64,000 nucleotides of DNA from Paraspadella gotoi (GCA_051294375.1 CM119266.1:21705875-21769874), one strand, 5' to 3'; positions 7,546 to 58,176 are shown, numbered from the stretch's first letter. The notes: generated by a model from the letters alone, not told the origin. Numbers and translations are program-made.

Positions 7546-10027
7546 TTAAGTTTTACGTCGTTTGGCGTCTGATCCGCCCTCGTGCGGTTTTTCTTCGTCG
7601 GCTTCGATGACCTAGTGACGATTGCAAGTACATATTAAGTGTATATTAAGTAATTATTTTACTAGAAGAGCTTTCCCCCACCCTCTTTTATTTTACCTTG
7701 AGTCTGCAGCCCGCGATCTCCGCTCCATTGAGTGTCTTGCGACAATCGTCGGCCGCCTGTCTTGAGTCGAACTTTGCGTAGCCGACAGTTTTGCCGGGTA
7801 ATGTGTAGACGTCGATGAGGGCGCCGAAGCGGCAGAACGCGTCTTCCAAGATAGGGCTCGTCAAAGCGCGAGGGGAGCAGATCAAGAAAAGGCGGGCCTT
7901 GTATTGGCGTCCGCTCTCCTTGTCGCCGTGAGGTTGCGGAACTGAGGAGTGAGAAGGGAAAGTTGGTTGTGTTAACACGGCTTCAAAAATACACATCCGA
8001 GGAAAAATGTATTAAAATATCTAAGTTAATTTCCACGCATCTGCTATTTTAAAGTAAATAAGTTCAAGGCGTCAATTACCCATTGGCTTCTTAGAGGGAA
8101 GCTCAACGCTGCACGGGTAGAAAGGCAGATCCATAGATTTTCCCGATCCGTGAGGATCAGGAATGTACTTCGCAACGATCCGACTTCCTAAAATAAGATT
8201 TCAGTTATTTCTCCTATTTCTGAAGCTAAATATCAAAAATACGTTTACCGGGAGGATATTCGAAACCATTCAGCTTCTTATGAGCGTATTGAGACCAATT
8301 TAGGGAGTTGAAAGATACATTTGCCACTCCTGGTGAAGTCATATCACATCTGTAAAACAATATAAACGAATTATTTTCGGATGACAAAAGTTAAGTAACT
8401 TAAGAATCTAACGGTGGGGCATCTTATATTATTATTTATTATTATTTATTATTTATTATTATTTATTTTTTCTTGGGTCGGACCTTTTAAATCCGGGAAT
8501 AATTTCGCAGAGAAAAGTAAGGTTCCTCTCGTCGATGTCTTGAGCGCATAAGAGGCGCAGAGAACAGGTCGCATCAGGATCGGACGGAGGGTGGGCCACG
8601 TCGGGCGGGAGGAGACCCAGCAAGCCGGCGGGGCTGTTAGGCAAGTATTCCAGACCCATGCAGTTTGGGTCACCACCACCATGATATCCTCCCGTGGAAC
8701 CGGGCAGGCCACCCCCGCCATCTGAACGGGGCCCGGGACCGCGTCCGCCGAATCCTCGGGAACCCCCGGTGTCGCGCGACTCAGCGAAGACGGCGCGAAA
8801 GGTTTGATCGCACTCTTCGAGGGCATAAGCGGCGTCGTAGAAGCGAAAGAACTTTACGTAAGCCACGCCTTAATTGAAAACGCATTTGCGTAAGATTAGG
8901 TTTTCTAAACCAAATAGTACCATACGATTTCTTCGTACCTTTCGGCTTGTTCGTCGCTCGGTCTTTGATCATGTTTATGTATTCGATTGAACCAAATTTG
9001 GAAAAACTTTCTTTGATGTCATCCTCGGTGAAATCGACTGGAACCTAGCCAAGAGAATTTTCATTTTATGAAAACAAAGAAATGAAAAATTATTTATGTC
9101 CACCGACGCTTACCCTTATGAATAAGCGAACCAATTCTTCCTCAGAAACCGAGTCCTTTCCAGTTCCGTATTTGGTGGCAACCATTACTTTCAATGGTTT
9201 GGGCGAACTAGGCAAAACCTGATTACCGTAAATGTTTTTACGTAGCTTCTTGTATAAAAAGACATTTTTCGCTAAACTAAACTGCAATTTCTTACTTTTC
9301 CGTTTAATCCCTCGATTGCCTTGGCTGCTTCAGAAGCTTTTGAAAACTTAACGAAAGCGATTCCCGTCAAAGATTCCTTGTCGCCGCGTTTTTTGACCTA
9401 AACAGTTTCATAGATGAGCAGGGGTTAAATTGACGTTCCGTCCTGCTGAAAAATTAAAGAATTGAGCAGGCACCATTCTAACGTCCTCCACATTTCCGTA
9501 GTCCTTGAAAGCCTTCCTTAATTCATCTTCGTCGATGCTCGATCCGTGAACGATGAAGAGACGAGAGTGAGTCACATCGTCTCGATCGCGATTTCCTTTA
9601 AGTAAATTTTATAGAGATTCAACTCCGCGGATTTAGTATTAAACATTTGAAGCTTACCGTAACGACTTTCGTATCGGTAATGACCGTCGTCCCTACTTCT
9701 TTCTTTTCCTCGGACGTAAGAACTGGGTGGATGAGAACTGAAATAGAAGAAAAACGTTTGGTTAGACTCAGTTTTAACAAACAAACGTCAATAATTTTCA
9801 TTTTTTTTAATTACGTGTAAACGTCGCGGGGATATGAATCTTTATAATAACCATTTCCGTATGGATCGCTTGAGTGCCTGGAACTGTTTTAACCATCAGG
9901 CTTATTTTCAAAAAACAACTTCGACAGAGGTAACAACTGAAAACTGAAAAGTTTCGTAAATTTACCTCGAATATCGATAGTCCCCTTCGTAGTCGTATTT
10001 TGGCGGCGAATGTGGATAACCTGACAT
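7546..10027 (-). CDS. RBM45: RNA-binding protein 45 (multi-RRM), multi-exon
   Basis: ATG 10027 (MSGYPHSPPKY). RRM1 HSRLFIVHG..GIAFVKFSKASEAAKAIEGLNG..KPLKVMVA; RRM2 EEELVRLFI..FTEDDIKESFSKFGSIEY..AYVKFFRFYDAAYALEECDQTFRAVFAE; YAHKKLNGFEYPPG; last RRM RLFLICSP..LEDAFCRFGALIDVY..GYAKF; basic end AKRRKT*. Confidence 0.92.
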
Positions 10028-10733: not shown

Positions 10734-13700
10734 TCATTGGAAATACCAATTGGTTTTACCTTGCGCCTCTTGAAGAATTCTCATTCTGGGTCCCATTGGA
10801 ATGCCAAGACGTTGCAATCTTTCTTCACTAATATAAGGCAACTCTACCATGCCTATTTTTTCTTCTTCGAATTGCCGCAAGTAGCGTTCGTAACCCAGCT
10901 TTTGTAAAAACAATCCCAGTAAGGGTGGTTCCTCTCCAAAGAACTTTGTCAATTTGTGGACCCTTTAAAGATATTAAAAAAAATGACGTAAATTATGAAT
11001 TGTACTGTATATACATTACACTATATATACAAACCTGTGCGGATTTGCCAGTGAAGCAACCCAAGTAGATGTCGACCTTTCGTTTGAGCTCAGAAGCAAT
11101 TTTTTCTCTGGTTCAATTTCGTGCGATTTCATTTCCTTAAAATTTAACAAACAAATAAAGTAATATCCTTATACAACTTAAACCTGTCATCCCTTTCACC
11201 TCACCATCAAAGTTTGTTTAATGGCCTCGATATCTTGACACAACAAGTGCTGCGAACGAAGTTCCGACGATAAATGAGCGACGGACCTGGCTAAAGTCAC
11301 AACGTGACCTTCGAGCCTCGCCAGTCGCTTCAGACTTTTGTGGTGCAACCTCGTAGCCCTAACGTCATCGTCGCTCCCGGCGGATTCGCCGCCGCTCTTT
11401 CCCCCGCTTCCGATCAAATCCTTAACGTTTTTGTAAATTGTCTCCATGGCTACGAGCTGTTGTCGCAAAACAGCGCTTTCTTCATTGGAAGGGAGGCGGG
11501 AATCGATGGTGGCACCTCCGACGGAGGAATCGTCTGCAGTCGTCTCGTCACCGGGTTCGAATCCCGGTCGTGGTAATATTTTTTTTAAATCGATTCTGTC
11601 TGGCAGCAAGTGAGAAGAGTGACGGGTGGCGGAGGAGCCCGGGTTACGAGAACGGTCGTTTTTTAGCTCAGAACCTGTTATAAGTAGATAGAGTAAAGAT
11701 TAATCAAAAGAATGAATGATTTTTTTTTCATTTGAGCAGTACGAGTAAGAGAACCTTGAAGCAAATCCGGAGGCGGTCCTTTATTGATAGTCTCATGAAC
11801 GAAGGAACTTTCCACAGCGCGATTGTTTTTTCGCGAAGGTTTGGACGAACGGTTATCAAGCGACTGACGCCCGTTCGGCGGATGGGCGTAATGAGGAATT
11901 TCAATTGGAGGATTTCTAAGTAATAAAAACAAAACGAGTTGAGCAAAGTGAACCGGATTTTTCGTCGGTTGACTTCGAAAATCACCTGTCGAGATTTGGC
12001 GATTCTGGAGGAGTATCCCCGGGGGACAATGGTGGCAGCGGTGGAGTTACCGAAGACCCCACAGAACTGACATAAGTAACAAAACATTGAAGGATATAAC
12101 TTTAATATTGGTTACAAATTTTTGGCAAATCTGCCAATTCATAAACAAGGAAATATTAACATATTAACATTCCGAAGACGAAAACTAACCTCGGAGACGG
12201 AGGATATAATCTAAACGCTTCTTCCATCTGATGGTCAAGGCAGTTAAGAGAACTGGCGCTCGAGCCACCGGTGCTTCCCAAACTGCCCCGAAACCGAGGA
12301 CCTCCAAAACTATCCAAGCCTTCGAAGCGAAATTGATTATCGTCGACGCGGTGTGAGCGCTTCGACTTTTTTTGATTCTCGCGAGTATGGCCAGAGCTTG
12401 TGGGCTGTATGTCCATCGGCTGGGATCTAGATTTATAAAATAGAATGTAATTATATGTAGATTGGCCTTAAAATCAAATAGTTACTGTTTGATCGATCTT
12501 TGTCGTATATCCCCGGAAGACTCCTCGAAAGTCATCGTTGGAGCAGTCAGGGTCGTGTTTACAGTTATGTCCAGCGACGACGCAGTGGCGTCTACGCCGT
12601 AAGACGTCTCGTTGGTCGTCGTTTGTAAGTTTCCATTGACGTCCGCGTCGCCACGATGACGATGAGCGTGATTCTCCAAAGCGGACGGAACGTAACCCGA
12701 ATTTTCTTTTAGGAAAAACCAATTAGCGGAGCGTTATCTTTCATCATATGGAAAAAATTATTCAATATTCATGCTAAATAAACCTGCAGTTGTATAATCA
12801 AGGTGAAAGCGCGTGGAATTATGTGCGTGTTCCACCAACGATTCTTCACTGTTGCCTTTCAGTAAATCTTTTAACTGCTCCTCCATTGACGGGAAAGACG
12901 TGCTGGGTTTGGCCGATGGCCGCGATTTTGAAGACAATTGCAATTTAGATTCGAGAACGTTTGGGGCGCTTACGTTTTGCTTTCCTGTGAAGAAATAAAA
13001 AAATGTTGGATGCGAAAAAATTGAAAATTAGATTTTCAGCATTAACCTTTGAAGTCGTTAGTCAGCAAGTTTTGTTTTAATCTCATCTTTCTTTGCTCTA
13101 CAGACATTTTTGACATCTGTGTGCAAGACACTGATGGAACTCGAGAGACGTTAGTTGTTCCTGAACAAAGAGATAATTAGGTTTATTAATTATGATTTTA
13201 TAAATTAAATAATATGTAATAATATGTAATAATATAATTAAAAAATATGTACCGAAAATATACCTTTTTGATTTATCCCAGGGGTAAGATCTAGCATGGT
13301 TCCCGGCAACATATCCAATGAAGAATTCGTCGTGTAACCGCCTCCTGAAAATAAGCATTTGACGGAAAATAGTGCAACATAAAAAAAAAAATTTAAAGTA
13401 AAGGGAATTACCTAACGTTGTTGAATTTCTTGCTCCATAGAAAGAACTTGTGTTATTGTCTTTGTTAAAGGTAAAGTTGGAATCGGTCAAAGCAGATGCG
13501 TGAATGGAAGAATTTTGAGACATGGACGGATTTGAAGATAAATAGGACGCTGTAAAAAAATGGATAATAATGATTAATGAAAATAATAATTTAAGGAGAA
13601 ATTTGAAATTTAATTACTCATAAAGTCTTTGGTAATTACCGGAATGATTAAAAGATTCAGAAGGTAGATGGGACCCTCCTAAAGAGGAGGAAGACATCAT

Positions 13701-15676
13701 CATCGAGTTATGATAGCGGATGACAGAGTTCCCATTGGGATCGTAGGCGTCTTTGATGCAACGCACAAGAGCAGCGCAGGATGAAGGATCTCCGCGGCAA
13801 ACTTCCTCCGTCAACTCGTTCTCGCTCTGAATTAAGAAGTCGTTCCGCATTTCATCATTTAAATTGCAAAGAGAATCCGATTGGTTTCTTCTGAAGGTAA
13901 CATCTACCTGCGGCAGCGCGAGGCCCTTCCCCCGAAGAAACTCGATGGCGTTAATGATGTTTTCATGTTTCTGTTGCGGCGACATGACGCGCGATTCCAC
14001 GAGATTAGGGATACACTCCCCAGCGAGAATCTCGATCAAAGTTGGCAGCGTCGAGCCGTCCGAAACCGATTTAGATACCTCCGTTGCCTTTTAGAGAAAT
14101 TAAAAAGAAAATTAATGTTAGCAGGTGTACTAAAGTTGGAGACTAAGTAGTAAAAATAACTAAAAAAATTATACCTGATAAGGAATTCCCTGAGATCTGA
14201 AAATCCCATTCATCCAGGACAGAAGCCCATGAACATTCGATACAGGATTCAACCTTGTTCCCAGTGTCCCTGATTCAGCTCGATTCCGATGAGCAATGAG
14301 ATCGGCGGCGAAGTGACGAGGATGTGTCGGCGCCGAAACTGGACGCAATTCCTTGTCGTAGCGAGATGCGTACGAGTCCTACAAAGAAACGTTTTGATAA
14401 TTCGTAATCAAGATAGTATAGTGGACTAAAATCCACTAACCGTTCATCAGTGGCCATTGGTGCGGAGGCAAGTCATTCGCCTCCCAACCCAAAGGTCCGG
14501 GGTTCTAGCCCGGTGGTCGTCTGGCAGTTAAGAGGGACGGGGCGCTTAACCCGCCTGTAACATGGTGTTACAGCCTGATCCGAAGCTCAGGGACTGCTTA
14601 TATTGAACGGTTCTGTCATTAACACTTATCAATAATTACTGTCTCTTCATTGGTGAGCCCGACTTCCGAACACAACAGCAACAACAACACTTTCAGGCGA
14701 CATGCCTCAACCTGGCGATGCACTTTCCGCCCACAACACATTAGGCGACATGCCTCAACTTGGTGACGAACATTCCACCAACAACAATTCACTGAAGAGA
14801 CACAACAGACATCTTCCTATGGGAGGGGGGGATGTATAGTGGACTAAAATCCACTAACCGTTCATCAGTGGCCATTGGTGCCGGAGGCAAGTCATTCGCC
14901 TCCCAACCCAAAGGTCCGGGGTTCTAGCCCGGTGGTCGTCTGGCAGTTAAGAGGGACGGGGCGCTTAACCCGCCTGTAACATGGTGTTACAGCCTGATCC
15001 GAAGCTCAGGGACTGCTTATATTGAACGGTTTCTGTCATTAACACTTATCAATAATTACTGTCTCTTCAATAGAAAATAAGTACATTGTATATCACTCGA
15101 AGATTAAACCTGAGTTTTATCGTGGGTGAGATCAAAAGGGTTTAGAGAAGATGAGGACCATTCGCCACCGAATTGAACCGACGTAGGGGTATCCTTTGAG
15201 TACATAACCTGAAACCAAAGGCAGCACCGATGAAAACTAGAATAAACAAAACGATCGTACAAAATACATTGATTCAGCATTTATTGTAAAATGAGCGGAA
15301 TTTTGCCAAGATTAACTAACAATACTAAAGAAATCGCTTACATGAAAATGCTAAAATTCATACAGCGACTTAACTGCTCTGTTACCCCAGCTTTAAGTAC
15401 CTTAGCGATTCCCTGAGAAGCCCCCGAGGCCGCTCCTTTGAAAAACGTATGGACTTTTCTCGAGACTGAATGGTTACTTTCAGGCGTCTGTCCTTCATTT
15501 GTCCATGAAGCTTGGCGCGGGGGAGGGGGCCCGTCTTCGATTCTTTCAAAGGGTTTCTCCATTGTATTTGTAGATCCTAGAAATTAAATCAAAGAAATTA
15601 AATGAATAAAAGATGAAAGGAAAACAAAACAAAAATACTGACCTGAGCCTGAGGAATATTTGGGCCTCATATTCAT
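10734..15676 (-). CDS. Uncharacterised protein: N-terminal calponin-homology-like domain, low-complexity middle, coiled coil, C-terminal SAM domain
   Basis: CH-like WMNGIF..SDGSTLPTLIEILAGECIP..QKHENIINAIEFLR; coiled coil RLARLEGHVVTLARSVAHLSSELRSQ; SAM KFFGEEPPLLGLFLQKLGYERYLRQFEEEKIGMVELPYISEERLQRLGIPMGPRMRIL; GT-AG exon chain from ATG 15676. Exact 3' end uncertain. Confidence 0.75.
14450..14521 (+). promoter_or_regulatory. tRNA-derived Pol III internal promoter in the 5' LTR (second copy about 14868-14940)
   Basis: A-box-like TGGTGCGGAGG, B-box-like GGTTCTAGCCC within a CCGGG/CCCGG T-arm hairpin, wobble-rich acceptor stem GTGGCCA/TGGTCGT, Gly-like TCGCCTCCCA segment. The anticodon stem does not pair, so it is not a functional tRNA. 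Confidence 0.75.
14524..14597 (+). ncRNA. Candidate twister ribozyme, type-P5 permutation (5' LTR copy)
   Basis: P5 GCAGTT/GACTGC; AA; P2' GAGG; GA; T1' CGGG; P1 reduced to GCGC; T; T|AA; P2 CCC; GC; P3 CTGTAACA/TGTTACAG; P4 CCTGA/TCAGG closing the loop TCCG-AA-GC. Predicted cleavage 14547|14548. Confidence 0.72.
14943..15016 (+). ncRNA. Candidate twister ribozyme, type-P5 permutation (3' LTR copy)
   Basis: Identical to 14524-14597; predicted cleavage 14966|14967. Confidence 0.72.
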
Positions 15677-17699: not shown

Positions 17700-20400
17700 A
17701 TGGCGCTCCTGAAGGCGATCCTCGAAAAGGCAAGGGAAGAGGAAGAAGCCAGGCTCAATTTCGAACCCGAAGAAGAAAGCGAGGAGAAAAAGTTGGGCTT
17801 GATTCCTATCCCGAGAGGACCCATCACTCAGAAGAAGGGTAATAATGACACGGCTCTAAAGTGGACACATTAGAGCTCGATTCGTCAAACTGAGCCGTAA
17901 CAATTTTTTGTCAGGTGATTTGGATTTGAAATGCGTTCACGGAAAAGTAGTCACAAATGATGCCGTGCGTAATATTGAGCTCGAGGAGAAAGAGACGTCG
18001 TCTTTTTCGTCGTCGTCGTCGCCATCGCCGACGAAGTTGTCGTCGGGTTCACCACCTTCCACAAGACCCTCATCCGGCTTGGGGGGTTTTCAATCCGTAC
18101 AGCCTCCCGATATTCGCGTCCGATATCCACAGTACTCAGGTTTGTAAAATATTCAATTTCAATAAGTTATTTTACTTCCACGTATAAATTTTTTAACTTC
18201 ATTATCATCATCCGGTTTTTTTAAATTTATGCTCAAAGGTATTGAAACGAAAACCTACATGACCATCTGTTGAGCGTTTTTAAGTGTTTCACTTTTTTCG
18301 CTTAGCACGCTATGTCGTTAAGTAATTTTTCACAATTATAACTTTAAAAAATGACGAGGCTTGGAATACATTTGTAGAAAATTCAAGTAGAAAATTCTGT
18401 GTACACTTTTAGTACCAATAGTACTTAATTTAATTCTGGTTCACGCGATAAAAAAAAACTAATATTTATATCATCTTTGAGAGTGTAAAGGATTTGATAA
18501 ACGGGAAATCTCACTCAGACGACGTCGGCGTCGAAGATGAGAAGGAAAACGTCTACGAGGAAGATTTTGACGTAGATGAAGAGACGACGGAAATATCCGT
18601 GTCCAGATACAACATTGCTGATGCACTCAATCAGAAAGGAACGCACGGTGAATAAGACTATTTGAAACGGAGCATAACAACTACTTGAGTATGATGAGTT
18701 TTTTCGATTTTCGGCAATATTTTCTTTACAACAGGAGACCTGCCCATACGCAGACCGAGCTCTCGACCCGTTTCGGCCGCCAGCGCCTCCTCGCGCTCGT
18801 CTGCTTCATTACTACAGGTTTGTGTGGGGAAAATGCAAAAAATATTTAAGAGAGAGAATACTACTAGCGAGATCAAAAAGAGTAACGAATCTTCTGAAAA
18901 AAAAAAATCGACTAGAAACTTCCTTTTAAAACCTCTCTGAAAACATGAGATCGCTTTTGACCCGAGTTTTCATAAATCGATTCTTTCATTCCCGTGTTTT
19001 ACGCGTCTCCATCAAAAAAGTTTTCTTTTTCAATTCCGACGTTCATTTTTTCTTTCAACTCGTGCTTCCCCCATTGATAAATAAGAACAAAATGAGCCAT
19101 ATTCATTTGGATTATAATTGATATTGTAATATTTGTCTAATTAATTCTTAGAAACGAGCCAGAAAGGTGACGCCGGGTCTGAGGTCGGCGCCTCCAATGA
19201 GCAACGACTTTCACAAATACAAGCACGTTTTTATGCTGGATCCAAGATACAGGCAAGTCAACACAAGAAAAAAAAAATCTTAGAATATCAATAGCTCAAT
19301 TATTAATATTAATGATAGAGTTTCAGAGTCATGATACTGGTAGGATTTGTGTCTAGTAATAGTTTATTATTGATTCGGTCTTGCATACCAATCTAGTATG
19401 CAAGACCGAATCAATAATAAACTATTACTAAATATTAATGATGTTATTTTAAAACTTGGTTCACAGGGACTACTTCATGAGCACGGAACAACGACTTCAG
19501 ATCAAGTACCAGGAATTAAATCATTTACTCAACCGCGATCTCAATCTTCCCGAGGAAAAATATTCGAGCTACGCGTATCAAATTGGGCCAAGGGTGAGAA
19601 TAACACAACGCAATTTGAGCTAATATACCTACTACCTAGTCTCACCCAATATTACCGAATATTTTCGTCCTAACGTATTATTGTTAATGAGGCTTCAACG
19701 ACGCCTGCAACGACACGAGCCGGATCGCTTTCGCCGCGCCAAAGGCCGACGCCCCGCAACATTTCCATCTACTACCTAAGGAAAAAGAAAAAAGAAACAG
19801 AAACGCAACGCCCCACCTCGGCCCCTCCAGGTCTGTCGGGCGAAAATGGGTTTCTAATTACAAGAAACGTTAAAATACTTTTAAGGAACAGAACTAGTCT
19901 ATCAGCCTCTTAGATTTTACGTATGAGTTCTCATTCCGACATAAATCATGTATGATGTCTATTAGAAAACAGGGGCAAAAATTATTTTAACCTCTATTTC
20001 CAGAAGACAACACTAACAGAAAATAGAAAATAGAATAAATTAATAATAAAAAAGTAAAAGATAAAATATTAATATTATAAAATCTGCAAAGATAAAATGG
20101 TGAAACAATTATTTTTGCAATTTTTATATCTGCTTTTAATAATCTTTGTACTACTTATTATTTTAAAATCAAATGGAATGAGTTTTCAATTTCTTCATTT
20201 TTCTCCTTCAATTTTATTCAGGAGGTCTACCCAAAATCCAACTGACGAACTTCGAACGTCGGGCGTCGCCTTCGATACTCAAAGGAAAACATCAGAGGAA
20301 GCAAGAGGGCTACGAGAGCGACGCCAGCTCGGATCACGGCTCCGCCAAAAAAGTACGATCCAACTGTCATTGTGTGAAATCTTTCTTTCGTTGCATTTAG
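17700..20400 (+). CDS. Uncharacterised multi-exon, largely disordered S/P/E-rich protein
   Basis: ATG 17700 MALLKAILEKAREEEEARLNF, then GT-AG exons (ENVYEEDFDVDEE; RRPSSRPVSAASASSRSS; DYFMSTEQRLQIKYQELNHLLNRD) and last exon ..KKVRSNCHCVKSFFRCI* ending at 20400. No family recognised. Confidence 0.6.
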
Positions 20401-21218: not shown

Positions 21219-24200
21219 ATGCCTTTCTTGAGCAAAGGTATTTTTCGTTGTCGTGTCATTTAATCCTCGGTACCTCCGACCCCTCTTCAGACGGGAGGAG
21301 ATCGACCCCGCCGCGAATATTGGAAGAGGACGACGACAGGGACGTCAGAGTCGGCGATCAGGAGGTAATAAGGACCCGAGGGAGACCGAGGAGTGGGTTT
21401 CGAAGGTCGCGGTTCGCGAACCCTGACGGAATTCTATTCGCCAAATAAAGAAAAACGTCAAAGGATTCCTCTTTTTTTTTTCTTCTTCTTCTTCTTCTTC
21501 ATCAGGAGGACGACTTCGTCAGCGAAATTCGGAAACTCCATTTTAGAGACTCGGACGAGGAGGAGGAGGAAGAGGAGGAGGAAAACAAGAGAGAGAGCGG
21601 AAGAAAAAGCGCTTTGGGTGTGGAAGTTAAAATTGGAAAAGATTCTTAAATTAATATAAATTATAATAATAGATATTTTTAAATCCTTCTAACGGTCCTG
21701 AGAATCAACACAATTAGTTTTTTTTTTTTTCTTTTTGACCACAATTTCTCCACGTTACCCATGTCTCATTAGCGTGTTTAGTACTACTAGAACTAAATGT
21801 GCTTTTCTCGTGCGATTAACCCTTGATCGATCGTAAGATATCATGATTAAACAAAAATTTTTGTCGTCTTTTTTTTTAAAGGATTCGTCGTTCCCCCGGA
21901 GGATGACAGGGAGAGCACCTCGGAAGGGGAGAAGGGTGAGGACGAAGACGAGGAAGAAGAGGAGAGCGGGAGGAGGGAAAGGGAGGAGAGACGAAAACGA
22001 AGAGCGAAAACCGCCAAGGGATATCGACAAAAGTCGGCCAGAGTCCGAAGCGAGGTTTGGAATTTAGTTTTTTTTTTCATGATCAGTCGGTTTCAATCAT
22101 TGACCTGTTGACATGTGCAAACTTTAAACAGAAAAAAAAAACCCCACTTTATGACGATATGACATATTTTTGTCATTTTAGTGGAAAGACGTCATCACTC
22201 ATCAGAATCGTTGGCCTTGATGGCTGGAATTGCGTTTTATATTTTCCAGGAGGAATCGGACGAGCCTGAATCTGGCGACAGCGGGATTTTGACGGACAAC
22301 GAGCGAGATCGAGAGTCGGACGAACGCCCGGGGAAAAAACACAAACAAGATCGCAGGGGTAAATAAGAGTCGGTTGGTCAGAACTATGGCTCGGCGAGGT
22401 TGTAGGGAGTCGGGGCCCATATGGTCCCATGTAGATAACTGACAAATTCGAACGTATTGCTATGAATTTTTTTTTTTGTGGGACAAAATTTGCATTGTGA
22501 GATGAGAAAAAAGTAAAAAAATGTCCCTGTGTGACTTTAAGAGACTTCTACATTACTAGGTTTCGTCGACCATCATCTAAAGTTTTCGCAGAATGAACGC
22601 TTAATTAATTGGTTAAGAAAAAAGAACAATGATCTTATGAAAGTAAGTTTGAATTTAGAATTGATTGGTTTTTTTTGTGTTTTTTTTGTTTTTGTTTTTT
22701 CCTGACGTGAGTAAATCTGTAAATAATTCTTAGCATGGTTAATATGGTTGTACCCTAAGAAGGTCTATGTTTCATCTGTTCGAATGCAATCTTATTGTTT
22801 TTAGGTGAAATCAAAAATACGAAAAGAAGAAAGAGACTATAAAAGGAGGGAGAAACAGAGACAGGTTTGTAAAGTATTTGGCCCTTTTTCCAATAGTATT
22901 CACAAATTTTTATTCGTGTAAAACTATCTTTTATAACTTTCAGGTGGAGGCTGAAGAAAAAAGGAAGCAATCTGAGGCTGCCGTCCAAGCTTGGTTCCTA
23001 AAGAAAAAAGAGGAGGAAAGGAGTTTACAAAGAAAATACCTGGAGATGCTCCAGATGACATCGGGTATTTCAAAGTCGTAGTACATGTATTTTTTATAAT
23101 ATGATTTTTATCATCGTGCTTCCATAAGGGTCTCGTGTCTCTCAAAAGATGAACTTGACCTTATACAACTTAATTTTTTACAGTGTAATATTTATGTTGT
23201 TTCATTAAATCTTAGAAAATGTAACCAGTATTTTGAAAATCGTAAATTTTTATTCATTTTATCAGGGAACGGTTGGGAGGCCATGTCAGAATCTCAGAAA
23301 CGGTTGTTGCGTCAAATGGTGATCAACGCAGAAGGTACACATTGTAACTTCTTTAGAGAAGTAAATTCTCTGGGCTTTTTTAATTTTGTAATTGTAATTG
23401 TAATAATCTCTCCCCTCAGGACGCGTGGGCGAGAGTTTGGAAAATGAAATGCGACGATTTAAGGAGGAAGAAGATTCGAGAGTCGAGGAGATGAAGAGAG
23501 AAAAGACCGAGGGAAAGAGAGAGGTAATTAATTAATTAATTTACATTAACTTATAGTCGTTGCATTGGAGATGTTGTTAAAAAAGATTTAAAAAGATAAA
23601 ATTGTCACTTTTGTCGTAGAGAGAATGATGATACAATAGAATTCAGTATTGTCCTTTACAAAGTATCCTTTCCTCGACTATTTTTCATTTTTGAAATTCA
23701 TGGTATATTCCTTTCTTTCGTTGTTTTTGAGAGAATAACAAAGTTTTTGATTTAATTTGTACAACGATTTTATTTTTTTTTATCTTAGCAGACATGTTTC
23801 GGCTCACAGTAAAACTGTAAAAAAGCGCTGATGAAGGCTCGAATTTGTGAGCCGAAACATGTCTGCTAAGATAAAAAATAAAATCGTTGTACAAATTAAA
23901 TCAAAAACTTTGTTATTTTTGAAATTAAAATATAGTCAGTAAAAATTAAGATATAATTAACGATCCTTTTTCTCCTACAGAAGCTGGTGAAAGAAGAGAA
24001 GAAAGAGAAGACTGAGGAAGAGATTGAGAGAGAAATGGAGGAAGCGCTGCAGAAGTTGGGCGAATGGGAAGGCGCCGACACCGGACAGGTACTTTTTGGA
24101 CTAGACTCGTGTAAAAAAATATTATAACAAGAACGGTAATTCAAATGTATTGCGCCGCAGTGACTGCCTTATCACGTGTATTTATTGTGACATAACTATA

Positions 24201-25201
24201 TGATTATAATAATTACAATAACGTTCTTAACCCGTGTATCTATGACATGCACTGCATCGGAAAACCGTCTTTTATTCTTTATAGTTTTAGGATTTCCTGA
24301 AGGCCGCGCTCGCAGTCCCTGAGATTTGAGGTTTTTTCCTGTCTTAATAAATGAGCATTGAATAACCAACTATATGCAAGATATATATATGAGCATTTTT
24401 AACGTAATTGGGACAGACCGATAGACAGACAGACCGACCGAAGACCGACCGAAAAGTGACTTATAGAGTTTCGCGGCGCAACTAAAAATAACCTTTACTA
24501 ATACTTCTTGAAATTTTATCCCAGGTTTTCGCTCAAGAGGAGGAAGACGAGTCCGAGTCGAAAGAGAAAGAGAAAGAAGAAAAGGAGGAAGAGGAGGAGG
24601 AAGAGGAAAATCCGGAAAAGCTGAAGGAACGTCTCCGATTGGCGGAGGAGCGAGGAAGGAGGCAAAAGATTTTACACAGGTCAAGAGCTGAGGAATTCGA
24701 TCGGAAATGACGAAGTGGCGCGTTAAGGCGTTAAGCATGAAATATTCTTCTATTTAAATCCCCTTTTTTTATATATATCACAGGAACATGCATGGCTATA
24801 AACAAGATGAAATAAAGAAAGACCCATATTACCAAAAACTCCTTCAAGTAATCTAGTTTTTTTTAAATCTTATTTATGTGGTAACTGGTAAGGGAGAAAG
24901 ACTTGGCCTCTTTTGTCTGACAAAAACTTTTCTTTTCTCGTGATAGGATATAAAGAATAATAAAGTTACGAAAGACTATCCTCGATTGGGTTCCCTTCAT
25001 CCCCAACCGATCAGATCCACCCACTCTCCGGCAACGACAAGTAAGCTAGGATTCCCGCCAAATTATTTTGTTAATTAACCCAATCGTCTATTTATGAATC
25101 CAGTTCAATTGACATCGAAAAAGTCGTCGAGACGAGCAGGAACGTCCGTGACAAGCAGATCATCTCGATCACAATCAAGAGCTTCAACTGCTTTGAAATA
25201 A
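21219..25201 (+). CDS. Uncharacterised E/K/R-rich coiled-coil protein with W-x-x-KK motifs reminiscent of CCDC34/CCDC181/MAP9
   Basis: ATG 21219 MPFLSK; exons EDDFVSEIRKLHFRDSDEEEE, QNERLINWLRKKNNDLMK, VEAEEKRKQSEAAVQAWFLKKKEEER, KLVKEEKKEKTEEEIEREMEEALQKLGEW; last exon ..SRSSRSQSRASTALK*. The family assignment is tentative. Confidence 0.62.
23734..23917. mobile_element. Penelope-like pseudo-LTR remnant: ~73 bp inverted repeat overlapping a hammerhead ribozyme
   Basis: Arm 23734-23808 is the reverse complement of arm 23846-23917 apart from A/T-tract length; the hammerhead core lies between and overlaps the right arm, followed by AATAAA. Confidence 0.75.
23824..23867 (+). ncRNA. Minimal type I hammerhead ribozyme (Penelope-type)
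   Basis: Stem I AGCG/TGCT, CTGATGA (23828-23834), A, stem II GGCTC/GAGCC, GAAA (23854-23857), palindromic stem III ACATGT, cleavage triplet GTC (23861-23863). Confidence 0.85.
24126..24488 (+). mobile_element. Helentron-associated (HINE/DINE-1-like) non-autonomous element, intronic
   Basis: Begins AACAAG, has subterminal inverted repeats TTGCGCCGC/GCGGCGCAA and an internal (GACA/GACC)n microsatellite, ends in TAAAAA; related inverted copies at 45801-46148 and 57030-57379. Confidence 0.65.
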
Positions 25202-27964: not shown

Positions 27965-30700
27965 ATGGCAGCGGTCGATGTCTACGTTCATCCCGCGGGG
28001 GTCGTAACCGTGACTGGAATCGGGCAAGGTGATAAATAGATTATTTAATTAAATTATGAAATAGAAATGTATTGTTAACTTTAAAAAAAATTATGCTGTG
28101 AGTTAATAAATGAAGATATACGTATAAGATAAATAATAAAAAAATTAAAAAAATAAATAAAAAGAAAAAAAAATAAAGATAGTGAAACAAGTAATTTTGC
28201 AACTTTCATAGAACCAAAGAAAGCTCACACGACGTTGTTATGATATATGACTTTTCCTCCAGAAACGGAAAGGTGCGATGATCCCCCACCAGAATATACA
28301 AGATCAGTTGAACAACGAATACCGCCTCCAGAAGACCGACAACAACAACAACAAGGGGAGATCTATCGACGACCGGATATCGATTTGATTCGCATATTAA
28401 TTTCCGGAGGATCGTTATTGTATTACACGACATTGATTTACATTCCTGAAATTCCCTACTTCCTTAAAGATCCCAACTACGATTCCCAAAATGAACAAGC
28501 TCGAAGGGTATATTTGATATATTTATCTTAAAACTATCTATCGATTTATCTATTAAGCATCCATCTAATTCATTCGTCGATCTTTCTATCTGACGATTTT
28601 TCTGTCTAATCAGGCATTTAAATACTTTTATTTATCTATCTTTCTCTCTATTTATCTCTGATTCGTTCAATCGTTCAAACTCTCCCCCATACCAGGCCGG
28701 CCATATATTCCTCTACTGGGCCGAAGCTTGGGCGGCTCCCACCATCTTCTTTATCTCCGGCCTCAACGTTTTCTCTTCCTTTCATAAACGAGACTTGACC
28801 AGTTTCCGATGGGAGCGCTACCATCGGCTCCTCGTCCCGGCGTTTGCCATAATGGCGGTCACTCAGCTTCCCCTGTCTTTCGCGTTCCTCGCCAAACTCC
28901 CGCCGAATTGCCGGCGAAGTTCGGAGGCGAACACTAACGCTTCCGAGGTCAAAGACAATTCGACCCACGATCATGACCCGTGCCTGGTCACCAGGGGTGA
29001 CGAAACGGGTCTCACGGCCGCCAGTTACGTCGACGGGTTTTGGAACTCCCCGCCTCACGAACCTTCGCCGCTGCAGGGATGGATATTGGTGTATATCTTC
29101 CTTTACGCTGAGGTACAGGCGGAGTAATTAGTTTAGTAATAATGGCGATTAATATTTTAGATCTCTAAAACATTTTTAATATATTTTTTTTGCTAAAATT
29201 TACACACTGTCTTGCTCCAAGGTTCTGGCGGGAGTTCTCTACTTATGGCATCCCTCCTCACCCTTCGAATCTACGACCGGCTGCATCTGCATCCCCGATC
29301 GCAGTTTTCTCTGCTGCTGCTGCCGCCGCGCCGGGTCGCCGACAGCGTTCAGCAAGAGGGTCAACTCTTTCCTCGGTTCGGAAAAAAAACTTGCGTTGAT
29401 TCCCGGTGCCGTTCTCGCCGTTCCAGAGGTGCGCAAAGGCAGGGGTGTGTAGGTGGGGGGGCCCTGAAAAAGCTCATGGGCTAAGAGAAATTGTATAAAA
29501 TATATAAATAAGAGAAATATAGCTTTAAATTTTGTGAAATAATGTCTACCAGTATAAACAGAATGTGTGATTTTTAAAAGGACGCTTGTGGCGGTATATT
29601 CACACCGCCTCACATCCACCATTGTTCAGCCAATCGCATTGACTCAGAGGGGGAACGCACCATACCAGGTGTTGCGTTCCATCCACAGTCCTAACGACTT
29701 CCCTCTGCGTTGGCAAAGCGAAACCGTCCTTTGGGTAACCGAGCATGTGACAGGAGGCGTCACTGAGGGTCGGAAGCCCCTAAAGACGACAGTGAGATGA
29801 CCCATCCCAATGGACATCACAGGCAACCCGGCGGTTTCCACTTGTTAATGTTAATTTTAGTTCCGATTTCAGGGAGGCCCGGGCCCACAAAAAAAAAATG
29901 TGCAGGCGCGTGCATAGGCACAATCCCCTTTTTTAATTTTTAATTCTTAATTTTTAAGTTAAAAATTAAAACTACATTCCTCTTTCTTCAGATGATCCTT
30001 CGCCCTGTCTTTCCCGAGGTCGAGCGCCACTTCCTCTCCGTATTTTATGACATTCCCTCTGATCTCAACTTTGGCTTCGTCTTCTTCTTGGGATTCGCCT
30101 TCGCCGCCGACGACTCTCGTCTTCGCCCGATCGCGGCGAACATCTCTCGACTCTACTTTTGGGCGGGCAACGCCTCGCTCTTGTGCCACGCCCTCCTGAA
30201 GACGTTCTACGGCGACAAGTTCGTCGCCGCCTTCTTTAGCGGAATGTTTCGAGGATTCGGCGAGTGGATGTTTATCTTGGGCTTAGTAGGACTGTGTCGA
30301 AGGTAAGGGGCAAGGGATTTGTCAAATAGTAAACTCAAATTCTATCTTCATTCTTCAATTCAGTCGCTTCACGACGAACTCGACGAGATTGTCAACATTT
30401 TTCGAGATGTCGCTGCCCTTCTTCCTGACGAATCAGCAGATTCTCGTTGCCGTGGCGTCGGGTCTACTCAGCCTCCGAGTTATAAATAACTTTGTTTTCG
30501 TTTTCGTCATCGCCACTGTCGCCGCCGTCGTCATCGCCGGTTTCGTCGTCAAATCGGGCCCGCTTCGCTACTTTTTCGGACTCTCAGTTGAGCCCGATTC
30601 CCCCGTGCCCGGGAAGAAGTGGCACGGACTCGTGCCCGGAATATTTTTGGTTATTCTTCTTGTCTTAGAAATCATTTCCGTTGCGGGAGTGAGAGGTTAA
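27965..30700 (+). CDS. Acyltransferase-3 family multi-pass membrane protein, OpgC/MdoC-like; multi-exon
   Basis: Motifs YRRPDIDLIR, WAAPTIFFISG, SFRWERYHRLLVP, QGWILVYIFLY, FFLGFAF, EWMFILGLVGLC and EMSLPFFLTNQQILV occur in AT3 order among hydrophobic helices, separated by GT-AG introns. Confidence 0.78.
29570..29847 (-). other. GC-richer, extensively self-complementary ~280 bp element in an acyltransferase intron (ncRNA or HINE-like element)
   Basis: Three nested stem domains on the minus strand with G-T wobbles; starts TAACAAG and ends with a hairpin then TTTTAAAAAT. Confidence 0.45.
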
Positions 30701-43749: not shown

Positions 43750-46700
43750 ATTATTAATTGTTTTATATACTAACAATTAGAACCATGAAAAAATATTACA
43801 AAATTATAACTTTTTGATAAAATTCTATCCAATAAAAATAGGGAATGACTAGAGCGAGGGAACGCTATCAATAAATATATGAAGGAAAAAAAAGTTAATA
43901 GCTCTCTCCAATTGATGTGTAGAATAACTCTAAAATTTCTAATCAATATATCTAATTAATTAACAAAATAGAAAAATATAGCTCAAAAATGTTGCTATAA
44001 ATCATTCTCTCCCTTCTATTCACTCTAGCCTTCAAGGAAGGGATAATAGTCGATATTTGAATGTTGATTAGATGGATGAAACAATAAACGTATTACGAAT
44101 CAATAGATTGGCAACAAAATTTTAAAATAAAATATATTTTTACCTTCATGTATTCCAATTGTACGAAAACAGAAGAATACTAATAGGCGTGCTAATTACA
44201 TGCTTTTTGACGAGCTTTCTTTTGCTCTCTCTGTGATCTAGCGCCCACACTTGGTCTTTATTGTCTTGGCGCAATTGATCTATCCACATTGCTTCCCCCT
44301 TTGTCTCCATCTCCGAGGTGAATCATGTATCATATAAGTGCTATAACTTTCATCTAAAACAAAATTTAGGAATTAGCAAAATATTCAGTGTTTCTCATTT
44401 TAGTTAATTCATACTGTGGTTCTGTAAACCTGTAAGGCTTAGGGAAAAGTAATAAAGGTAATAAACCGAGCGGGACTCGAAGGGGTTACCCGGTGCCAAT
44501 GTTTTCAGGCTTTGTTATTTTATAGTGTTGTTGGGTAACCGCGAATATTTAGATGTTTTTTTTTCCGGAAATAGTTGAAAATATTTCAATTCAATTTTTG
44601 CTTCGGTTAATCTTCACGTATAAATCAGAAAAAAAATGTCGTATAAAAAATCAACTAATTATATATAATAATACTTGCGTTTTATTAAAATTAATATTTA
44701 ATACTAAATGCAATGAAAAATTATTATAACACCTGGCAAAAAGATTAGACCACTGGGTGCGCTGACACTGAGTAGGTAAGACTCATAGATACCGACTGGG
44801 GAGTGGGCTCCAGTGGGCTGTGGGCACTGGACAGATTAGAGTTTCGGCTCCGAGCCGCTGTTTCTTGAGGCGAAAGACAATAGAGTTTCGGTGAAAATGG
44901 AATTCCCGTTCGTTGTTCTGTCAACGTTTGGTCGGCTCGCACTGTTTGCGTTAAGGTGTTGTTTAGCGTTCTGATGCTGAAAACAAAATAAATGCGGAGA
45001 GTACGTTTGTAAACAAGAAAACAGAAGCGCCTTCTCATTAATAAACAATTGTTTCACACTAAAATATTTGTATGTCCAAATTAGTATTCACGTCAACGTA
45101 GCCTATGTTTTTAAGGTTACATATGTTATAAATCACTCAACGCAAATTGCCACGTCTGAGTGTCATTATTTGCTTCCAAATCAATTATAAATTATCTATT
45201 CTTTTCGGTATATTTTTTTTAAATTGTAATGAAAATTTTATAAAAAAATTCAAATTGATTTGCTCTCCAGCTTTATCATCCTGGTTTATATCAGCTGTGG
45301 GCAAAAAGAGAAAAGTTTATACAGGGAAATTTCAGTTTCAAATGCAAATTAATATTAAAGAGAGTGAATCTTAAGGAATGGATAAAACTTTCCTTTATAA
45401 TGTGTGTTTGCCTCTTTGAAAGGATAAAGGTGTGAGAGATCTTATATCATATTTTATTATGATATTGGGAATTATTTGGTTAAGATTTTGTTTTTTTTTT
45501 TGCTTTTACCCTTCAACGATGTAAAGTTTGCGTTTGGTGATCCTTTAATTAATGCCTGAGCCTTTGTATAATTAAAACAACGAAATTCGTATAAAACACC
45601 TGAATTGGATGAAAAGTTGGAACGAGGAAGGCATCCTCAAGAGTTTACCTGTAAAGGTAGTTCGGAAAGCGGGACCACACGTCGTCGATCCATCTTGACG
45701 GAGATGGAATTTTGTCAAACCACATCTTAATTAATAAACAGTTATAAAATAAGCCCGTGAGGCGCTTAACAACGCCGATCGAGAGGCTTTCATTTCTTTG
45801 TTTTTAATTGCGCCGAGAGTACCGCGGAGAAACTCTATTAAGTAACTTTTCGGATCGGTCTGTCGTCGTGTGGTATGGTCCGTCTCGGTCGGTCTGTCCC
45901 ACTTACATAAAAATGCTATATTTGTTAGTTGCTCATTTGTTAAGACAGGTAAACCTGAAATCTACAGTGACTGCTAGCGCGCTTCAGGAAATCGCGAAAC
46001 TAAAGGAAAAAGAGACGGAATTTCGATGCATAAATAAATACAAGGGCTAAGGAAAGTTTTTTATTGTCATCATATCAGTATGTCATGTCATACACATAAA
46101 AATAAAGCACTACGCGACGCAACACATTGGACATCAACCGTTCTTGTTTAGATCTGTAAGAGTGGAAAAAAACATATATAAGGATCAATGATCGGTAAAA
46201 TAACTATTCCTCTACTTTAGGATGGTCTGGTCGAATGAAAGAATTAATCCGACAGAAATTGTGATCCATTTCCATTAAGTTCTTCTCTTTCCTTCGTAGT
46301 TTAAATAGAACACGAGGTGTATGTTTCTTGCATGATTGTGTGCGCGGCGGCACGCTGTGCTTGGCGGCGAAACAGAGAAATATGCGAGCTGCTTTACAAA
46401 AACGAATTGTTTCTCAGAGGTTTAGCTTTAAAAATAAGTAAACAAACGCAAAAAAAGAAGCCGTGAAAACGAGCAGAGCATCGGCAAAAATACCCTGGAA
46501 AAAATTTATTTTTCTCTTCTTCTTACGGGTTTGCGAGGCATCTCTTCTCTCTCTCCATCTCTCTCATCTGTCTCTCTCCTCTCTCTCTCTCTCATCTCCT
46601 CTCATCATAAAATGAATCTAATCCTATTTCCTCAGCTTCTTCCTTTTAACCGTCTCCATCCTGATAACAAGTGGTTTTGCTCTACTTCAAGCCAGGAAAC

Positions 46701-46975
46701 CTTTTCAAGGTTGTCAGTCTCTTTCTCGCTCACCTCTCTCTCTCTCTCCGTCTCCTCTTCTCTCGTCTCTCGCTCTCTCTCTCTCGTCTCTCTCTCTCTC
46801 TCTCTCTTCTCTGTGTTGTCCAAAATCTCGCTCATTATCCGAATGCATTTAAAAGGACGCCGGGGGTTGAGGTTTCGAGCCCAAACAAAAAGTCGCACCT
46901 TTTACGGGTTTGGAACCCGGGGAACCGCGTCCTCGTTTTTCCTTTCCGTATTTTTAAGTCGTTAGAGGGGGAAAG
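43750..46975 (+). repeat. Copy 1 of a ~3 kb direct duplication
   Basis: Colinear with about 55270-58176 (shared GGCTTAGGGAAAAGT, GATACCGACTGGGGAGTGGG, GAGGTTTCGAGCCCAAACAAAAAGTCGCACC); differences are mostly small indels. Confidence 0.9.
45801..46148 (-). mobile_element. HINE-like element, same family as 24126-24488
   Basis: Reverse-complement similarity over the whole length (CCGTTCTTGTT end, CTTCAGGAAATC, GGTCTGTCCCA, TTGCGCCG end). Confidence 0.65.
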
Positions 46976-55269: not shown

Positions 55270-57742
55270 TTTAATTGTATTTTAACTACAAGCCAAAATT
55301 AATTTTATTAATACAAATTGCAACAAAAAAATTGAAAAAAAGTTAAGCCATGCCGTAATAACTCTAAATATCTAATAATTATCTAATTATTCAAAATGAA
55401 AATGCTCAAATATGTTGCTATTCATCCCTATCTTATTGGCCTTCAAGAATGGATAATAGTGATTAGTGATTAATGGATAAAAAAACGTATTACGTCAAGA
55501 GATGTTCACATTTTTAAAATAAAATATGTTTTTTTCCTTCGACGAAGAAAAAATAAAGAGGAAAAGCTGCATTTGCTTTGTGACGAGCTTTCTTTTGCTG
55601 ATAAGGAATAGGGCCCCTTGTCCCCTTGTCCCCTTGTCCCATCCCGGATCAAGAAAAAGGAAACTCAAAAAAATTAGGATTAGCATTCAGGTCTAATTTA
55701 GTTAATCATACCGTGTCTCTTCCCCCTTAGGCTTAGGGAAAAGTAAATAAAGGAATAAACCGCGGGAATCGAAGGGGTTCACCGGTGCCAATGTTTTCAG
55801 GCTTTGTTATTTTTAGTGTTGTTGTGGTAACCGCGAATATTTAGATGTTTTTTTCCGGAAATAGTTGAAAATATTTCAATTCAATTTTTCTTCGGTTAAT
55901 CTTCACGTAATCAAAAGAAAAATGTCGTATAAAAATCAACTAATTTTATAATAATACTTGCGTTTATTAAAATTAATATTTAATACTAAATGCAATGAAA
56001 TTTTATAACACCTGGCAAAAAGATTAGACCACTGGTGCTGACACTGAGTAGGTAAGCTCTAGATACCGACTGGGGAGTGGGCAGTGGGCTGTGGGCACTG
56101 GACAGATTAGAGTTTCGGCTCGAGCCGCTGTTTCTGAGCGAAGACAATAGGATTTCGGTGAAAATGGAATCCCGTTGTTTGTTCTGTCCAAGCGTTGGTC
56201 GCTCGCACTGTTTGCGTTAAGGTTGTTTTAGCGTTCTGATGCTGAAAAACAAAATAAATGCGGAATACGTTTGTAAACAAGAAAACAGAAGCCCCTTCTC
56301 ATTAATAAACAATTGTTTCACTAAAATATTTGTATGCCAAATTAGTATCACGTCAACGTAGCTATGTTTAAGGTACATACGTATAAATCACTCAACGCAA
56401 ATGCCACGTCTGGTGTCATTATTTGCTTCCAAATCATTATAAATTATCTATTCTTTCGGTATATTTTTTTAAATTGTAATGAAAATTTTATAAAAAAATA
56501 TTCAATTGATTTCTCTCCAGCTTTATCATCCTGGTTTATATCCAGCTGTGGCAAAAAATCGAGAAAAAGTTTATACAGGGAAATTTCAGTTTCAATGCAA
56601 ATTTAATATTAAGAGAGTGAATCTAAGAATGATAAAACTTTCCTTTATAAGTGTGTTTGCCTCTTTGAAAGATAAGGGTGAGAGGATCTTTATCTTTTTT
56701 TTGATTGGGAATTATTTGGTTAAAGTTTTTTTTTTTTTGCTTTACCCTTCACGATGTACAGTTTGCGTTGGGATCCTTTGAATTAATGCCTGAGCCTTTG
56801 TATAATTAAAACAACGAAATTCGTATAAAACACCTGAAATTGGATGAAAAGTGGACGAGGACGCATCCTCAAGAGTTTCATCTGTAAAAGGTGTTCGGAA
56901 AGCGGGACCACCGTCGTCGATCCACTTGACGGAGATAGAATTTTGTCAGAACCACATCTTAATATAAAACAGTTATAAAATAAGCCCCGTACGCTTAACA
57001 ACGCCCGATCGAGAGGCTTCATTTCTTTGTTTTTAATTGCGCCGAGAGTACTCGCGGAGAAACTCTATAAGTAACTTTTCGGTCGGTCTGTCGGTCGGTC
57101 GGTATGTCCGTCCGTCGGTCTGTCCCACTTACATTAAAAATGCATATAATTTGTTAGTTGCTCATTTGTTAAGACAGGAAAAAACCTGAAATCTAAGTGA
57201 CTGCTAGCGCCGCCTTCAGGAAATCCGAAAACTAAAAGGAATAAAAGACGGAATTTCGATGCATAAATAAATACAAGGGCTAAGAAAGTTTTTTAGTCAT
57301 ATCATATCATGTTATGTCATGTCATACACATAAAAATAAAGTCACTGCGACGCAACACATTGGAATCACCGTTCTTGTTTAGATCTGTAAGAGTGGAAAA
57401 AAAATATAAGGTCAATGATCGGTAAATAACTATTCTCTACTTTAGGATCTGTCGAATGAATAGAATTTAATCCGACAGAAATTGTGATCCATTCCATTAA
57501 GTCTTCTCCTTTCTTCGTAGTTTAAAAATAGACACGAGGGTGTGTTTCTTGCATGATTGTGTGCGCGGCGCACGCTGTGCTTGGCGGCGACAGAGAAATA
57601 TGCGAGCTCTTACAAAAACGAATTGTTCTCGAGGGTTTAGCTTTAAAAAAGTAAACAAACCAAAAAAAAGAAGCGTGAAAAACGACAGCATCGCAAAATA
57701 CCCTGGAAAAATTTATTTTTCTCTTCTTCCTTACGGGTTGCG

Positions 57743-57784
<42 letters not shown>

Positions 57785-58176
57785 ATATCTCTCTCATCCT
57801 TCCTCTAGTCATAAATGATCTAATCCTATTTCCTCGCTCTTCTTTTTAACCACGTCTCCATCCTGATAACAAGTAGGTTTTGCTCTGACTTCAAGCCAGA
57901 AACCTTTTCATGGTTGGTCAGTCCCTCATTTCTCTGCTCTCACCTCGTCTCTCTCCTCTCTCGTCTCCCTCTCTCTCGTCTCGTCGCTCTCTCTCTCTCG
58001 TCTCTCTCTCTCTCTCTCTCTCCGTGTTGTCCAAATCTCGCTCTTATCCGAATCATTTAAAGGACGCCGGGGGTGAGGTTTCGAGCCCAAACAAAAAGTC
58101 GCACCTTTTACGGGTTTGAACCCGGGGAACCGCGTCCTGTTTTCTTTCTATTTTTAGTCGTCGAGGGGGAAAAGAT
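55270..58176 (+). repeat. Copy 2 of the ~3 kb direct duplication, lying between assembly gaps
   Basis: Colinear with 43750-46975; N-gaps at 54850-54874 and from 58177. Confidence 0.9.
57030..57379 (-). mobile_element. HINE-like element (copy within the duplication)
   Basis: As 45801-46148, with terminal near-palindrome CCGAGAGTACTCGCGG. Confidence 0.65.

Follow-up and report, generated by a model that had tools for sequence, protein, structure and literature searches.

A gene-less, high-copy LTR element of Paraspadella gotoi with a tRNA-like head and a twister-type fold in each LTR: a candidate animal retrozyme

LTR retrozymes have been described with hammerhead ribozymes and primarily in plants, Helenus elements without ribozymes, and retroelement twisters at the 5′ ends of non-LTR elements; the three are joined in the element analyzed here. 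The accessible text of the Helenus paper (Kojima 2024, PMC10886601) reports no ribozyme: the word "twister" gave 0 matches and the word "ribozyme" one, in a reference title. A search of the open-licence literature found neither a twister-bearing LTR element nor a combination of Helenus, retrozyme, and twister.

The mutation-sensitive parts of twisters are the catalytic bases, the pseudoknots, P3, P4, and P5, and imperfections in P1, P2, and P4 are tolerated (PMC5113685; accessible part of PMC11662667). P1 is dispensable according to the same two sources, in agreement with an earlier interpretation of this DNA from its letters alone (the sequence-only reading). The canonical P4 consists of four pairs and ends in an essentially invariant G-C (PMC5408937, in the part consulted); cleavage dropped from 0.76 to 0.58 when the fourth P4 pair was imperfect, and the loop-closing position of P4 is less tolerant of change (PMC11662667). 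As for P2, its imperfections were tolerated in the natural twisters tested (PMC11662667), and a review warns that an altered P2 length may disrupt the active site (PMC5408937).

The window, i.e., the whole stretch of P. gotoi DNA that was analyzed, is 64 kb long (GCA_051294375.1 CM119266.1:21705875-21769874). Positions 14417–15069 of the window are occupied by a 653-bp LTR element, a gene-less TRIM of a high-copy family, whose features are listed in Table 1.

Table 1 Features of the LTR element, in positions of the 64-kb window.
Feature	Position	Strand	Basis or remark
5′ target-site duplication, ATAG	14413–14416	+	Same 4 nt at 15070–15073; empty-site contig
5′ LTR, 233 nt, ends TAT...TCA	14417–14649	+	99.2% identity to 3′ LTR
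tRNA-Gly(CCC)-like head, box B GGTTC at 14501–14505	14450–14521	+	ARAGORN -ps90
Type-P5 twister fold, copy 1, 74 nt	14524–14597	+	Predicted cut between U14547 and A14548; sequence and published architecture
P1 segment GGCGCU, loopless, self-complementary	14541–14546	+	Self-duplex −8.3 kcal/mol
Predicted 419-nt unit RNA, candidate circle	14548–14966	+	Inferred from the two predicted cut sites
Internal region, non-coding, 17-nt direct repeat at 14695 and 14743	14650–14834	+	Longest stop-to-stop frame 60–65 aa
Primer-binding site (PBS), tRNA-Trp type	14651–14663	+	12 of 13 positions as in the Trp PBS of Kojima Fig. S2 (PMC10886601), by eye
Polypurine tract (PPT)	14821–14832	+	Sequence
3′ LTR, 235 nt, TG at 14833–14834 just before	14835–15069	+	LTR comparison; contig loose ends
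tRNA-Gly-like head, copy 2	14868–14940	+	ARAGORN -ps85
Type-P5 twister fold, copy 2, identical to copy 1	14943–15016	+	Predicted cut between U14966 and A14967
3′ target-site duplication, ATAG	15070–15073	+	Matches 14413–14416; empty-site contig

The two LTRs differ by two single-base gaps only, and the internal region showed no coding potential on either strand beyond the short frame given in Table 1. The LTR borders were marked by loose ends of contigs, which numbered 142, 109, and 40 behind 14649 and 54, 45, and 10 before 14835 in runs X1, X5, and X9, respectively. One X1 contig represents the empty site, joining 14412 to 15070 with four letters that fit either side, which marks the insertion as recent or polymorphic. 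The element was matched by 17538 contigs of run X1, and the summed depth, which is not a copy number, reached millions inside it versus approximately 250 in the flanks. The element thus belongs to a very abundant family. The family insertion begins with TAT (14417), two bases inside the TG found just after the polypurine tract (14833–14835). In addition, ten internal nucleotides (14793–14802) are complementary to the 3′ end of the LTR (14640–14649), and the two segments pair in the predicted unit RNA.

The element likely lies inside an intron of a predicted minus-strand gene, as judged from the sequence. RBM45-like exons occur at 7688–9787 (minus strand), and the best Atlas cluster for a close relative was mostly arthropod, both of which identify the host as an animal; the homologue search with the exon at 13617–14090 was empty. 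Elsewhere in the window, we observed a weak match to Acyl_transf_3, short of the Pfam cut-off, at 28594–29127 (plus strand), a repeat of approximately 2.5 kb without a long ORF at 44361–46974 and 55669–58172 (86–91% identity), a 350-bp repeat at 24126–24478 with inverted copies inside both copies of the 2.5-kb repeat, and a near-perfect palindrome of 77 nt at 19354–19430.

The tRNA-like head of the 5′ LTR, a decayed sequence as is that of the 3′ LTR, was the sole ARAGORN match in the window at -ps90, and its score was reached by 2 of 500 base-shuffled LTRs; at the default ARAGORN threshold the head was not detected. Its box B is present, and its box A deviates from the TRGCY consensus. The variants T14451C, T14517C, and T14520C, which convert G-U pairs of the acceptor stem to G-C pairs, are common in the family. 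From these sequence features, the head is likely an RNA polymerase III promoter. No T4 run occurs within 14417–15069, the first being at 15115, which is not significant as 19% of shuffles likewise lacked one. Since a tRNA-Gly-like head stands upstream of the ribozyme in each LTR, we regard the element as a Helenus-type element with the anatomy of a retrozyme. The sequence-only reading had recognized the twister and its residues, which were borne out, and had overlooked the tRNA-derived head and the Helenus-type context.

The twister landmarks, which that reading had placed in permuted type-P5 order, were confirmed at 14524–14597 and in an identical copy 419 nt downstream, in the 3′ LTR. P5 (14524–28/14593–97), P3 (14555–62/14566–73), and P4 (14574–78/14587–91) consist of five, eight, and five pairs, respectively, and all 18 are Watson–Crick pairs. 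In P2, the 5′ strand CCC (14550–52) faces the 3′ strand GAGG (14532–35). Both pseudoknots are intact: T1 is formed by CGG (14538–40) and CCG (14580–82) with three Watson–Crick pairs, and T2 by GC (14553–54) and GC (14585–86) with two G-C pairs. The loop reads U-CCG-AA-GC. The cut-site bases U14547, A14548, and A14549 directly follow the linker GGCGCU (14541–46), and the conserved bases of L1 and L4 are all present (G14536, A14537, A14548, A14549, U14579, A14583, and A14584). The assignment of G14536 as the general base and of A14548 to the predicted cut site agrees with the published architecture, as far as given in the consulted parts of PMC5408937 and PMC8501958. T1 had been read as TCCG/CGGG; the pseudoknot itself stood, and its length was reduced to the three pairs CCG/CGG because crystal structures show three Watson–Crick pairs plus one A-A pair (PMC5408937). 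The CCG/CGG form of T1 is natural, as it occurred in 9 of 15 unique phage twisters, one of which (L239) was confirmed by Rfam. Likewise, P1 is a loopless palindrome as proposed, not of GCGC alone, being the 6-nt segment GGCGCU whose self-pairing over 6 bp includes two G-U pairs. Self-complementary 6-mers of this kind make up 2.3–5.3% of all 6-mers.

A relaxed descriptor (GA, T1, AA, GC, U-NNN-AAGC, at least four pairs in P4, and at least two in P2, with P3 and P5 not required) matched only the two LTR sites in the window, and gave 20 matches when the whole window was dinucleotide-shuffled 3727 times. The fold z-score of the segment was −2.1, with 8 of 200 shuffles equally good. Rfam gave no twister match to the fold, neither at the gathering threshold nor at E up to 10, and found no hammerhead in the LTR element; twisters pulled from phage contigs as positive controls were recognized in the same kind of search. 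We concluded that the fold at 14524–14597 is real and beyond chance.

The fold departs from canonical twisters in three respects. The P1 segment has 6 nt and no hairpin closure, compared with a P1 region of 17–26 nt in 14 of the 15 unique phage matches, the 15th being a tandem pair of type P1; P2 has a 5′ strand of 3 nt instead of the four needed for four pairs; and P4 has five pairs closed by A14578-U14587 instead of four closed by G-C. The deviations of P1 and P2 had been noted earlier and were upheld, and that of P4 had been overlooked. Variation across the family was examined in contigs that cover the ribozyme (7973 in X1, 2791 in X2, 1059 in X7, and 1 in X11), with insertions and deletions counted from 1% upward; runs X10 (2 contigs) and X11 (1 contig) were excluded from claims on range. 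No insertion or deletion at this level was found inside the ribozyme among the family contigs of X1, X2, and X7, and therefore the CCTC form of P2 was not seen. This check for CCTC in other copies had been proposed together with the idea that P2 needs a CCC to CCTC repair, which is unsupported: CCC opposite GAGG is the family state, and P2 imperfections are tolerated (PMC11662667). These results revealed that the departures are the state of the family and not damage to a single copy.

Only one position of the ribozyme, base 14563 in the P3 loop, had a variant above 20% (54, 32, and 30% in X1, X2, and X7, respectively). The loop-closing base 14562 of P3 varied in 12, 3, and 3% and A14533G was rare (1.3, 0.3, and 0.0%); low-level changes in the ribozyme were mostly C>T or G>A, many of them at CpG. 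G14582A, which breaks T1, was found in 13, 5, and 2%, and C14538T in 7, 1, and 1%. The two sites are the partners of one T1 pair and the contigs cannot phase them; the changes could represent a subfamily with a compensatory U-A pair, or CpG decay that struck the two sites independently. Among the variants listed, the neighboring LTR positions 14517, 14520, 14523, 14619, 14626, and 14629 varied by 19–68%. The contrast in common variants between the ribozyme and the flanking LTR, again among those listed, is post hoc and weak (0 of 71 versus 9–10 of 162 positions, p = 0.03–0.06), and two of the sites that enter the count seem to be peculiar to the present copy.

The phage comparison set comprised 15 unique sequences, from 41 of 120 loci that passed the pairing filter, and its search pattern allowed only a P2 of 4 nt and only G-C as the closing pair. 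An exact 17-mer was found at six loci of viral contigs, none with the fold, and the family-specific pattern had 0 matches in metagenomes. A relaxed pattern with a 6-nt P1 gave 115 loci in 58 of 64 metagenome parts, and among the 114 of these that could be parsed, not one was convincing; the strongest candidate (L164) had no Rfam match. Viral scans were negative for the fold (0 of 49 loci), for type P1 with a 3-nt P2 (0 of 34), and for a P1 of 4–9 nt (0 of 119 parsed loci, in 23 of 64 parts), as was the scan of prokaryote genomes for a 6-nt P1 (0 of 57). The collections searched hold few animal genomes, and hence these blanks say little. In a search for precedents of a 3-nt P2, one of 71 loci passed (L449), and it was rejected when Rfam aligned it with a 4-bp P2 and a changed T2; L458, with a 3-nt P2 and a 5-bp P4, was also rejected, at only 25.3 bits and E 0.023. 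These two phage type-P5 candidates (L449:58-125; L458:57-111, minus strand) show single-base loss around P2/T2. Two further candidates were reassigned: L581 is of type P1, and L427, in which P1 had seemed to be of 6 nt, turned out to hold two type-P1 twisters arranged in direct tandem on a phage contig (L427:40-139, minus strand).

We consider it fairly probable that the element works as a retrozyme, in which an RNA polymerase III transcript would be cut at the two twister sites and the resulting 419-nt RNA would be circularized and copied with the help of a Gypsy element. Transcription would start near 14450 and read through, and cleavage at 14547/14548 and 14966/14967 would free an RNA that contains the primer site, the polypurine tract, and a single LTR in permuted form. 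A host ligase would then close this RNA into a circle, as proposed for retrozymes (PMC4918200), and tRNA-Trp priming together with a Gypsy-type helper would copy and mobilize it; no helper ORF was found among the window ORFs scanned. Cutting is suggested by the distribution of changes, in that the intact parts are the mutation-sensitive ones and the altered P1, P2, and P4 the tolerant ones. Against cutting stand the three deviations taken together, the warning on P2 length, the Rfam miss, and the folding predictions. In pseudoknot-free folding, the T1 strand of a lone copy was placed in a blocking CGGG/CCCG hairpin with probability 0.99, and the active-compatible monomer lay 9.4 kcal/mol above the blocking fold (energies without pseudoknots and Mg2+). 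A lone copy is thus predicted to fall into this hairpin. It is this hairpin that would compete with the active fold, and not the GTTAAG/CTTAAC pairing of the sequence-only reading, which had a predicted probability of 0.00 and was rejected. P2 had a probability of 0.00, versus 0.87–0.99 for three of the four P2 pairs in 14 of 14 phage type-P5 twisters, also without pseudoknots. When the unit RNA was folded as a circle, the ribozyme was blocked as well, with an energy of −126.0 kcal/mol, compared with −109.6 ± 5.4 kcal/mol for 40 base-shuffled sequences; plant retrozymes are likewise reported to have their ribozyme blocked in the unit RNA (PMC4918200).

Three other possibilities, concerning what the fold is and how it might act, were weighed against one another. 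The element could be an ordinary Helenus-type TRIM that is not cut and moves by the standard LTR route, its captured twister having decayed by collapse of P1, shortening of P2, and lengthening of P4; we give this a serious but minority chance. The three deviations, the predicted blocking hairpin (0.99), and the Rfam miss fit such a vestige, and most Helenus LTRs examined in the supplement of PMC10886601 carry no ribozyme, so none would be needed. A young burst of copies would also hold any master sequence uniform. Decay is harder to reconcile with catalytic and pseudoknot positions that are all intact, with 18 of 18 Watson–Crick pairs in P3, P4, and P5, with common variants that, among those listed, avoid paired and catalytic positions, and with deviations confined to change-tolerant parts (PMC11662667, as far as accessible). 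It is very improbable that the segment is not a twister, i.e., that it is a structured LTR RNA such as a packaging or dimerization signal with a chance resemblance. Such a signal would explain the lack of an Rfam match, and pairing from copy to copy could be served by the P3 hairpin as well as by the GCGC that the blocking hairpin exposes in its loop. It is opposed by the descriptor null of 0.005 per window, in which P3 and P5 are not yet counted, by the lack of helices at loci with chance landmark matches (0 of 49 and 0 of 57), and by a P3 akin, by eye, to that of Schistosoma twisters in a published table (PMC8501958).

The retrozyme reading itself was divided about evenly between a ribozyme that acts as a single copy without a P1 helix, which taken by itself is a possible but lesser outcome, and one that depends on LTR-to-LTR pairing through GGCGCU, which we think unlikely. 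In the latter, an obligate two-copy ribozyme, pairing of GGCGCU between copies would force P2, P5, and T1 to be swapped along with P1, and therefore each active site would combine 5′ sequence from one LTR copy with 3′ sequence from its partner; only two-LTR transcripts would be cut, and the released monomer would be protected. GGCGCU lies exactly at the place of P1, where a hairpin of 6–11 bp was found in each of the 14 unique phage sequences of type P5 that have a true P1, and its self-pairing covers 6 bp (−8.3 kcal/mol). Even with its strands swapped, the two-copy structure remains fully nested, P1 adds 8.6 kcal/mol to it (−47.5 versus −38.9), and its gap to two blocked monomers is approximately 3.7 kcal/mol per ribozyme, versus 9.4 kcal/mol for the lone monomer; a variant with P3 swapped as well was not nested and was discarded. 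Those Penelope hammerheads whose stem III is palindromic work as dimers (PMC6765202), and the remark in the sequence-only reading that minimal hammerheads dimerize via palindromic stems is in line with this review, in the part seen. Dependence on two copies is weakened by the dispensability of P1, by 6 nt plausibly spanning the gap inside one copy, and by the possibility that symmetric collapse of a P1 hairpin yields a palindrome without selection. Moreover, in the best predicted two-copy fold (−66.0 kcal/mol), P3 and P5 are exchanged between the copies and the ribozyme is off; this fold is more stable than the swapped active-compatible one by 18.5 kcal/mol. No second palindrome-P1 family that could show covariation was found in the viral, metagenome, and prokaryote collections, which hold few animal genomes. 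More doubtful still is the complete picture of an animal Pol III-driven LTR retrozyme with a two-copy twister, in which the LTRs would pair via the palindromic P1, two crossed active sites would form, and only full-length transcripts would be cut; that the released 419-nt circle could not re-cut itself belongs to this picture and is put forward just as tentatively.

Among known systems, Helenus (TRIMp3) resembles the element in being a TRIM of less than 1 kb with tRNA-derived LTR sequence, a tRNA-type PBS, and a PPT (Kojima 2024, PMC10886601). Features by which Helenus is recognized were found here: two LTRs, a PBS, a PPT, no coding capacity, and a length below about 1.3 kb. The 4-bp TSD, here ATAG and backed by the empty-site contig, is that of animal Helenus, and the LTR start TAT also occurs in some published Helenus LTRs, including some of wasps (PMC10886601). 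Most of the Helenus LTRs examined differ from the present ones, in that their tRNA part sits close to the 3′ end and a T-rich stretch comes after it, whereas here it lies in the 5′ half of the LTR and is followed by the twister. Zebrafish and Nasonia Helenus as twister carriers were not borne out by the LTRs examined, and the twister and PBS motifs of the element matched none of the Helenus consensuses in the supplement of PMC10886601, where line breaks could hide a match. Two gall-wasp LTRs, Helenus-2_SyJa-LTR and Helenus-2_SyUm-LTR, combine a Trp PBS with a hammerhead-like motif that directly follows the tRNA head (PMC10886601, by eye); the accessible parts of that paper do not mention the motif. 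Judged from sequence, the two look like unreported insect LTR retrozymes. We take their motif to be type III hammerhead-like by its core; the loops of its stems I and II are complementary. By analogy, this layout supports that of a tRNA head followed by a ribozyme in the present element.

Plant LTR retrozymes (Cervera et al. 2016, PMC4918200) are likewise non-coding, with a ribozyme in each LTR, a 4-bp TSD, a PBS, and a PPT, and their ribozyme is also blocked in the predicted unit RNA. They differ in their type III hammerheads, larger size, tRNA-Met priming, and primarily plant hosts, whereas the present element is from an animal and combines a tRNA-like head and a Trp-type PBS with a twister, its circle being a prediction. 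The Perere-3 T-variant twisters (Liu et al. 2021, PMC8501958) are retrotransposon twisters with a similar P3 and junction by eye, but they belong to type P1, occupy the 5′ end of an element without LTRs, and rely on the target site to complete P1. The minimal hammerheads of Penelope-like elements share a short palindrome in place of a helix and an element with two repeat copies (PMC6765202); they are of another ribozyme class that needs this helix, in contrast to the dispensable P1 of twisters, and dimer action is hypothetical here. With the type-P5 twister (Rfam RF02684) the fold shares the order of its parts, the catalytic G and A, T1, T2, and the L4 loop, and it differs in the missing P1 hairpin, the 3-nt P2 strand, the 5-bp A-U-closed P4, and the lack of a model match. 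Because it lacks three canonical features and a match to the Rfam model, we did not file the ribozyme as canonical type P5.

If the element cuts, the circular-RNA retrotransposon cycle would extend to an animal LTR element and to a second ribozyme class, with a built-in promoter. If cutting needs a pair of copies, it would be a natural dimer-gated twister, of which the open-licence literature gave no example, and a compact two-copy sensor. Together with the hammerhead-bearing gall-wasp Helenus, it would define a class of animal retrozymes that share a tRNA head and whose ribozymes are interchangeable. In comparison with the described systems, the element thus has the tested features of Helenus and a retrozyme-like working model, its twister-type fold standing where LTR retrozymes have a type III hammerhead, and its ribozyme is best described as twister-derived and not as a canonical type-P5 member.
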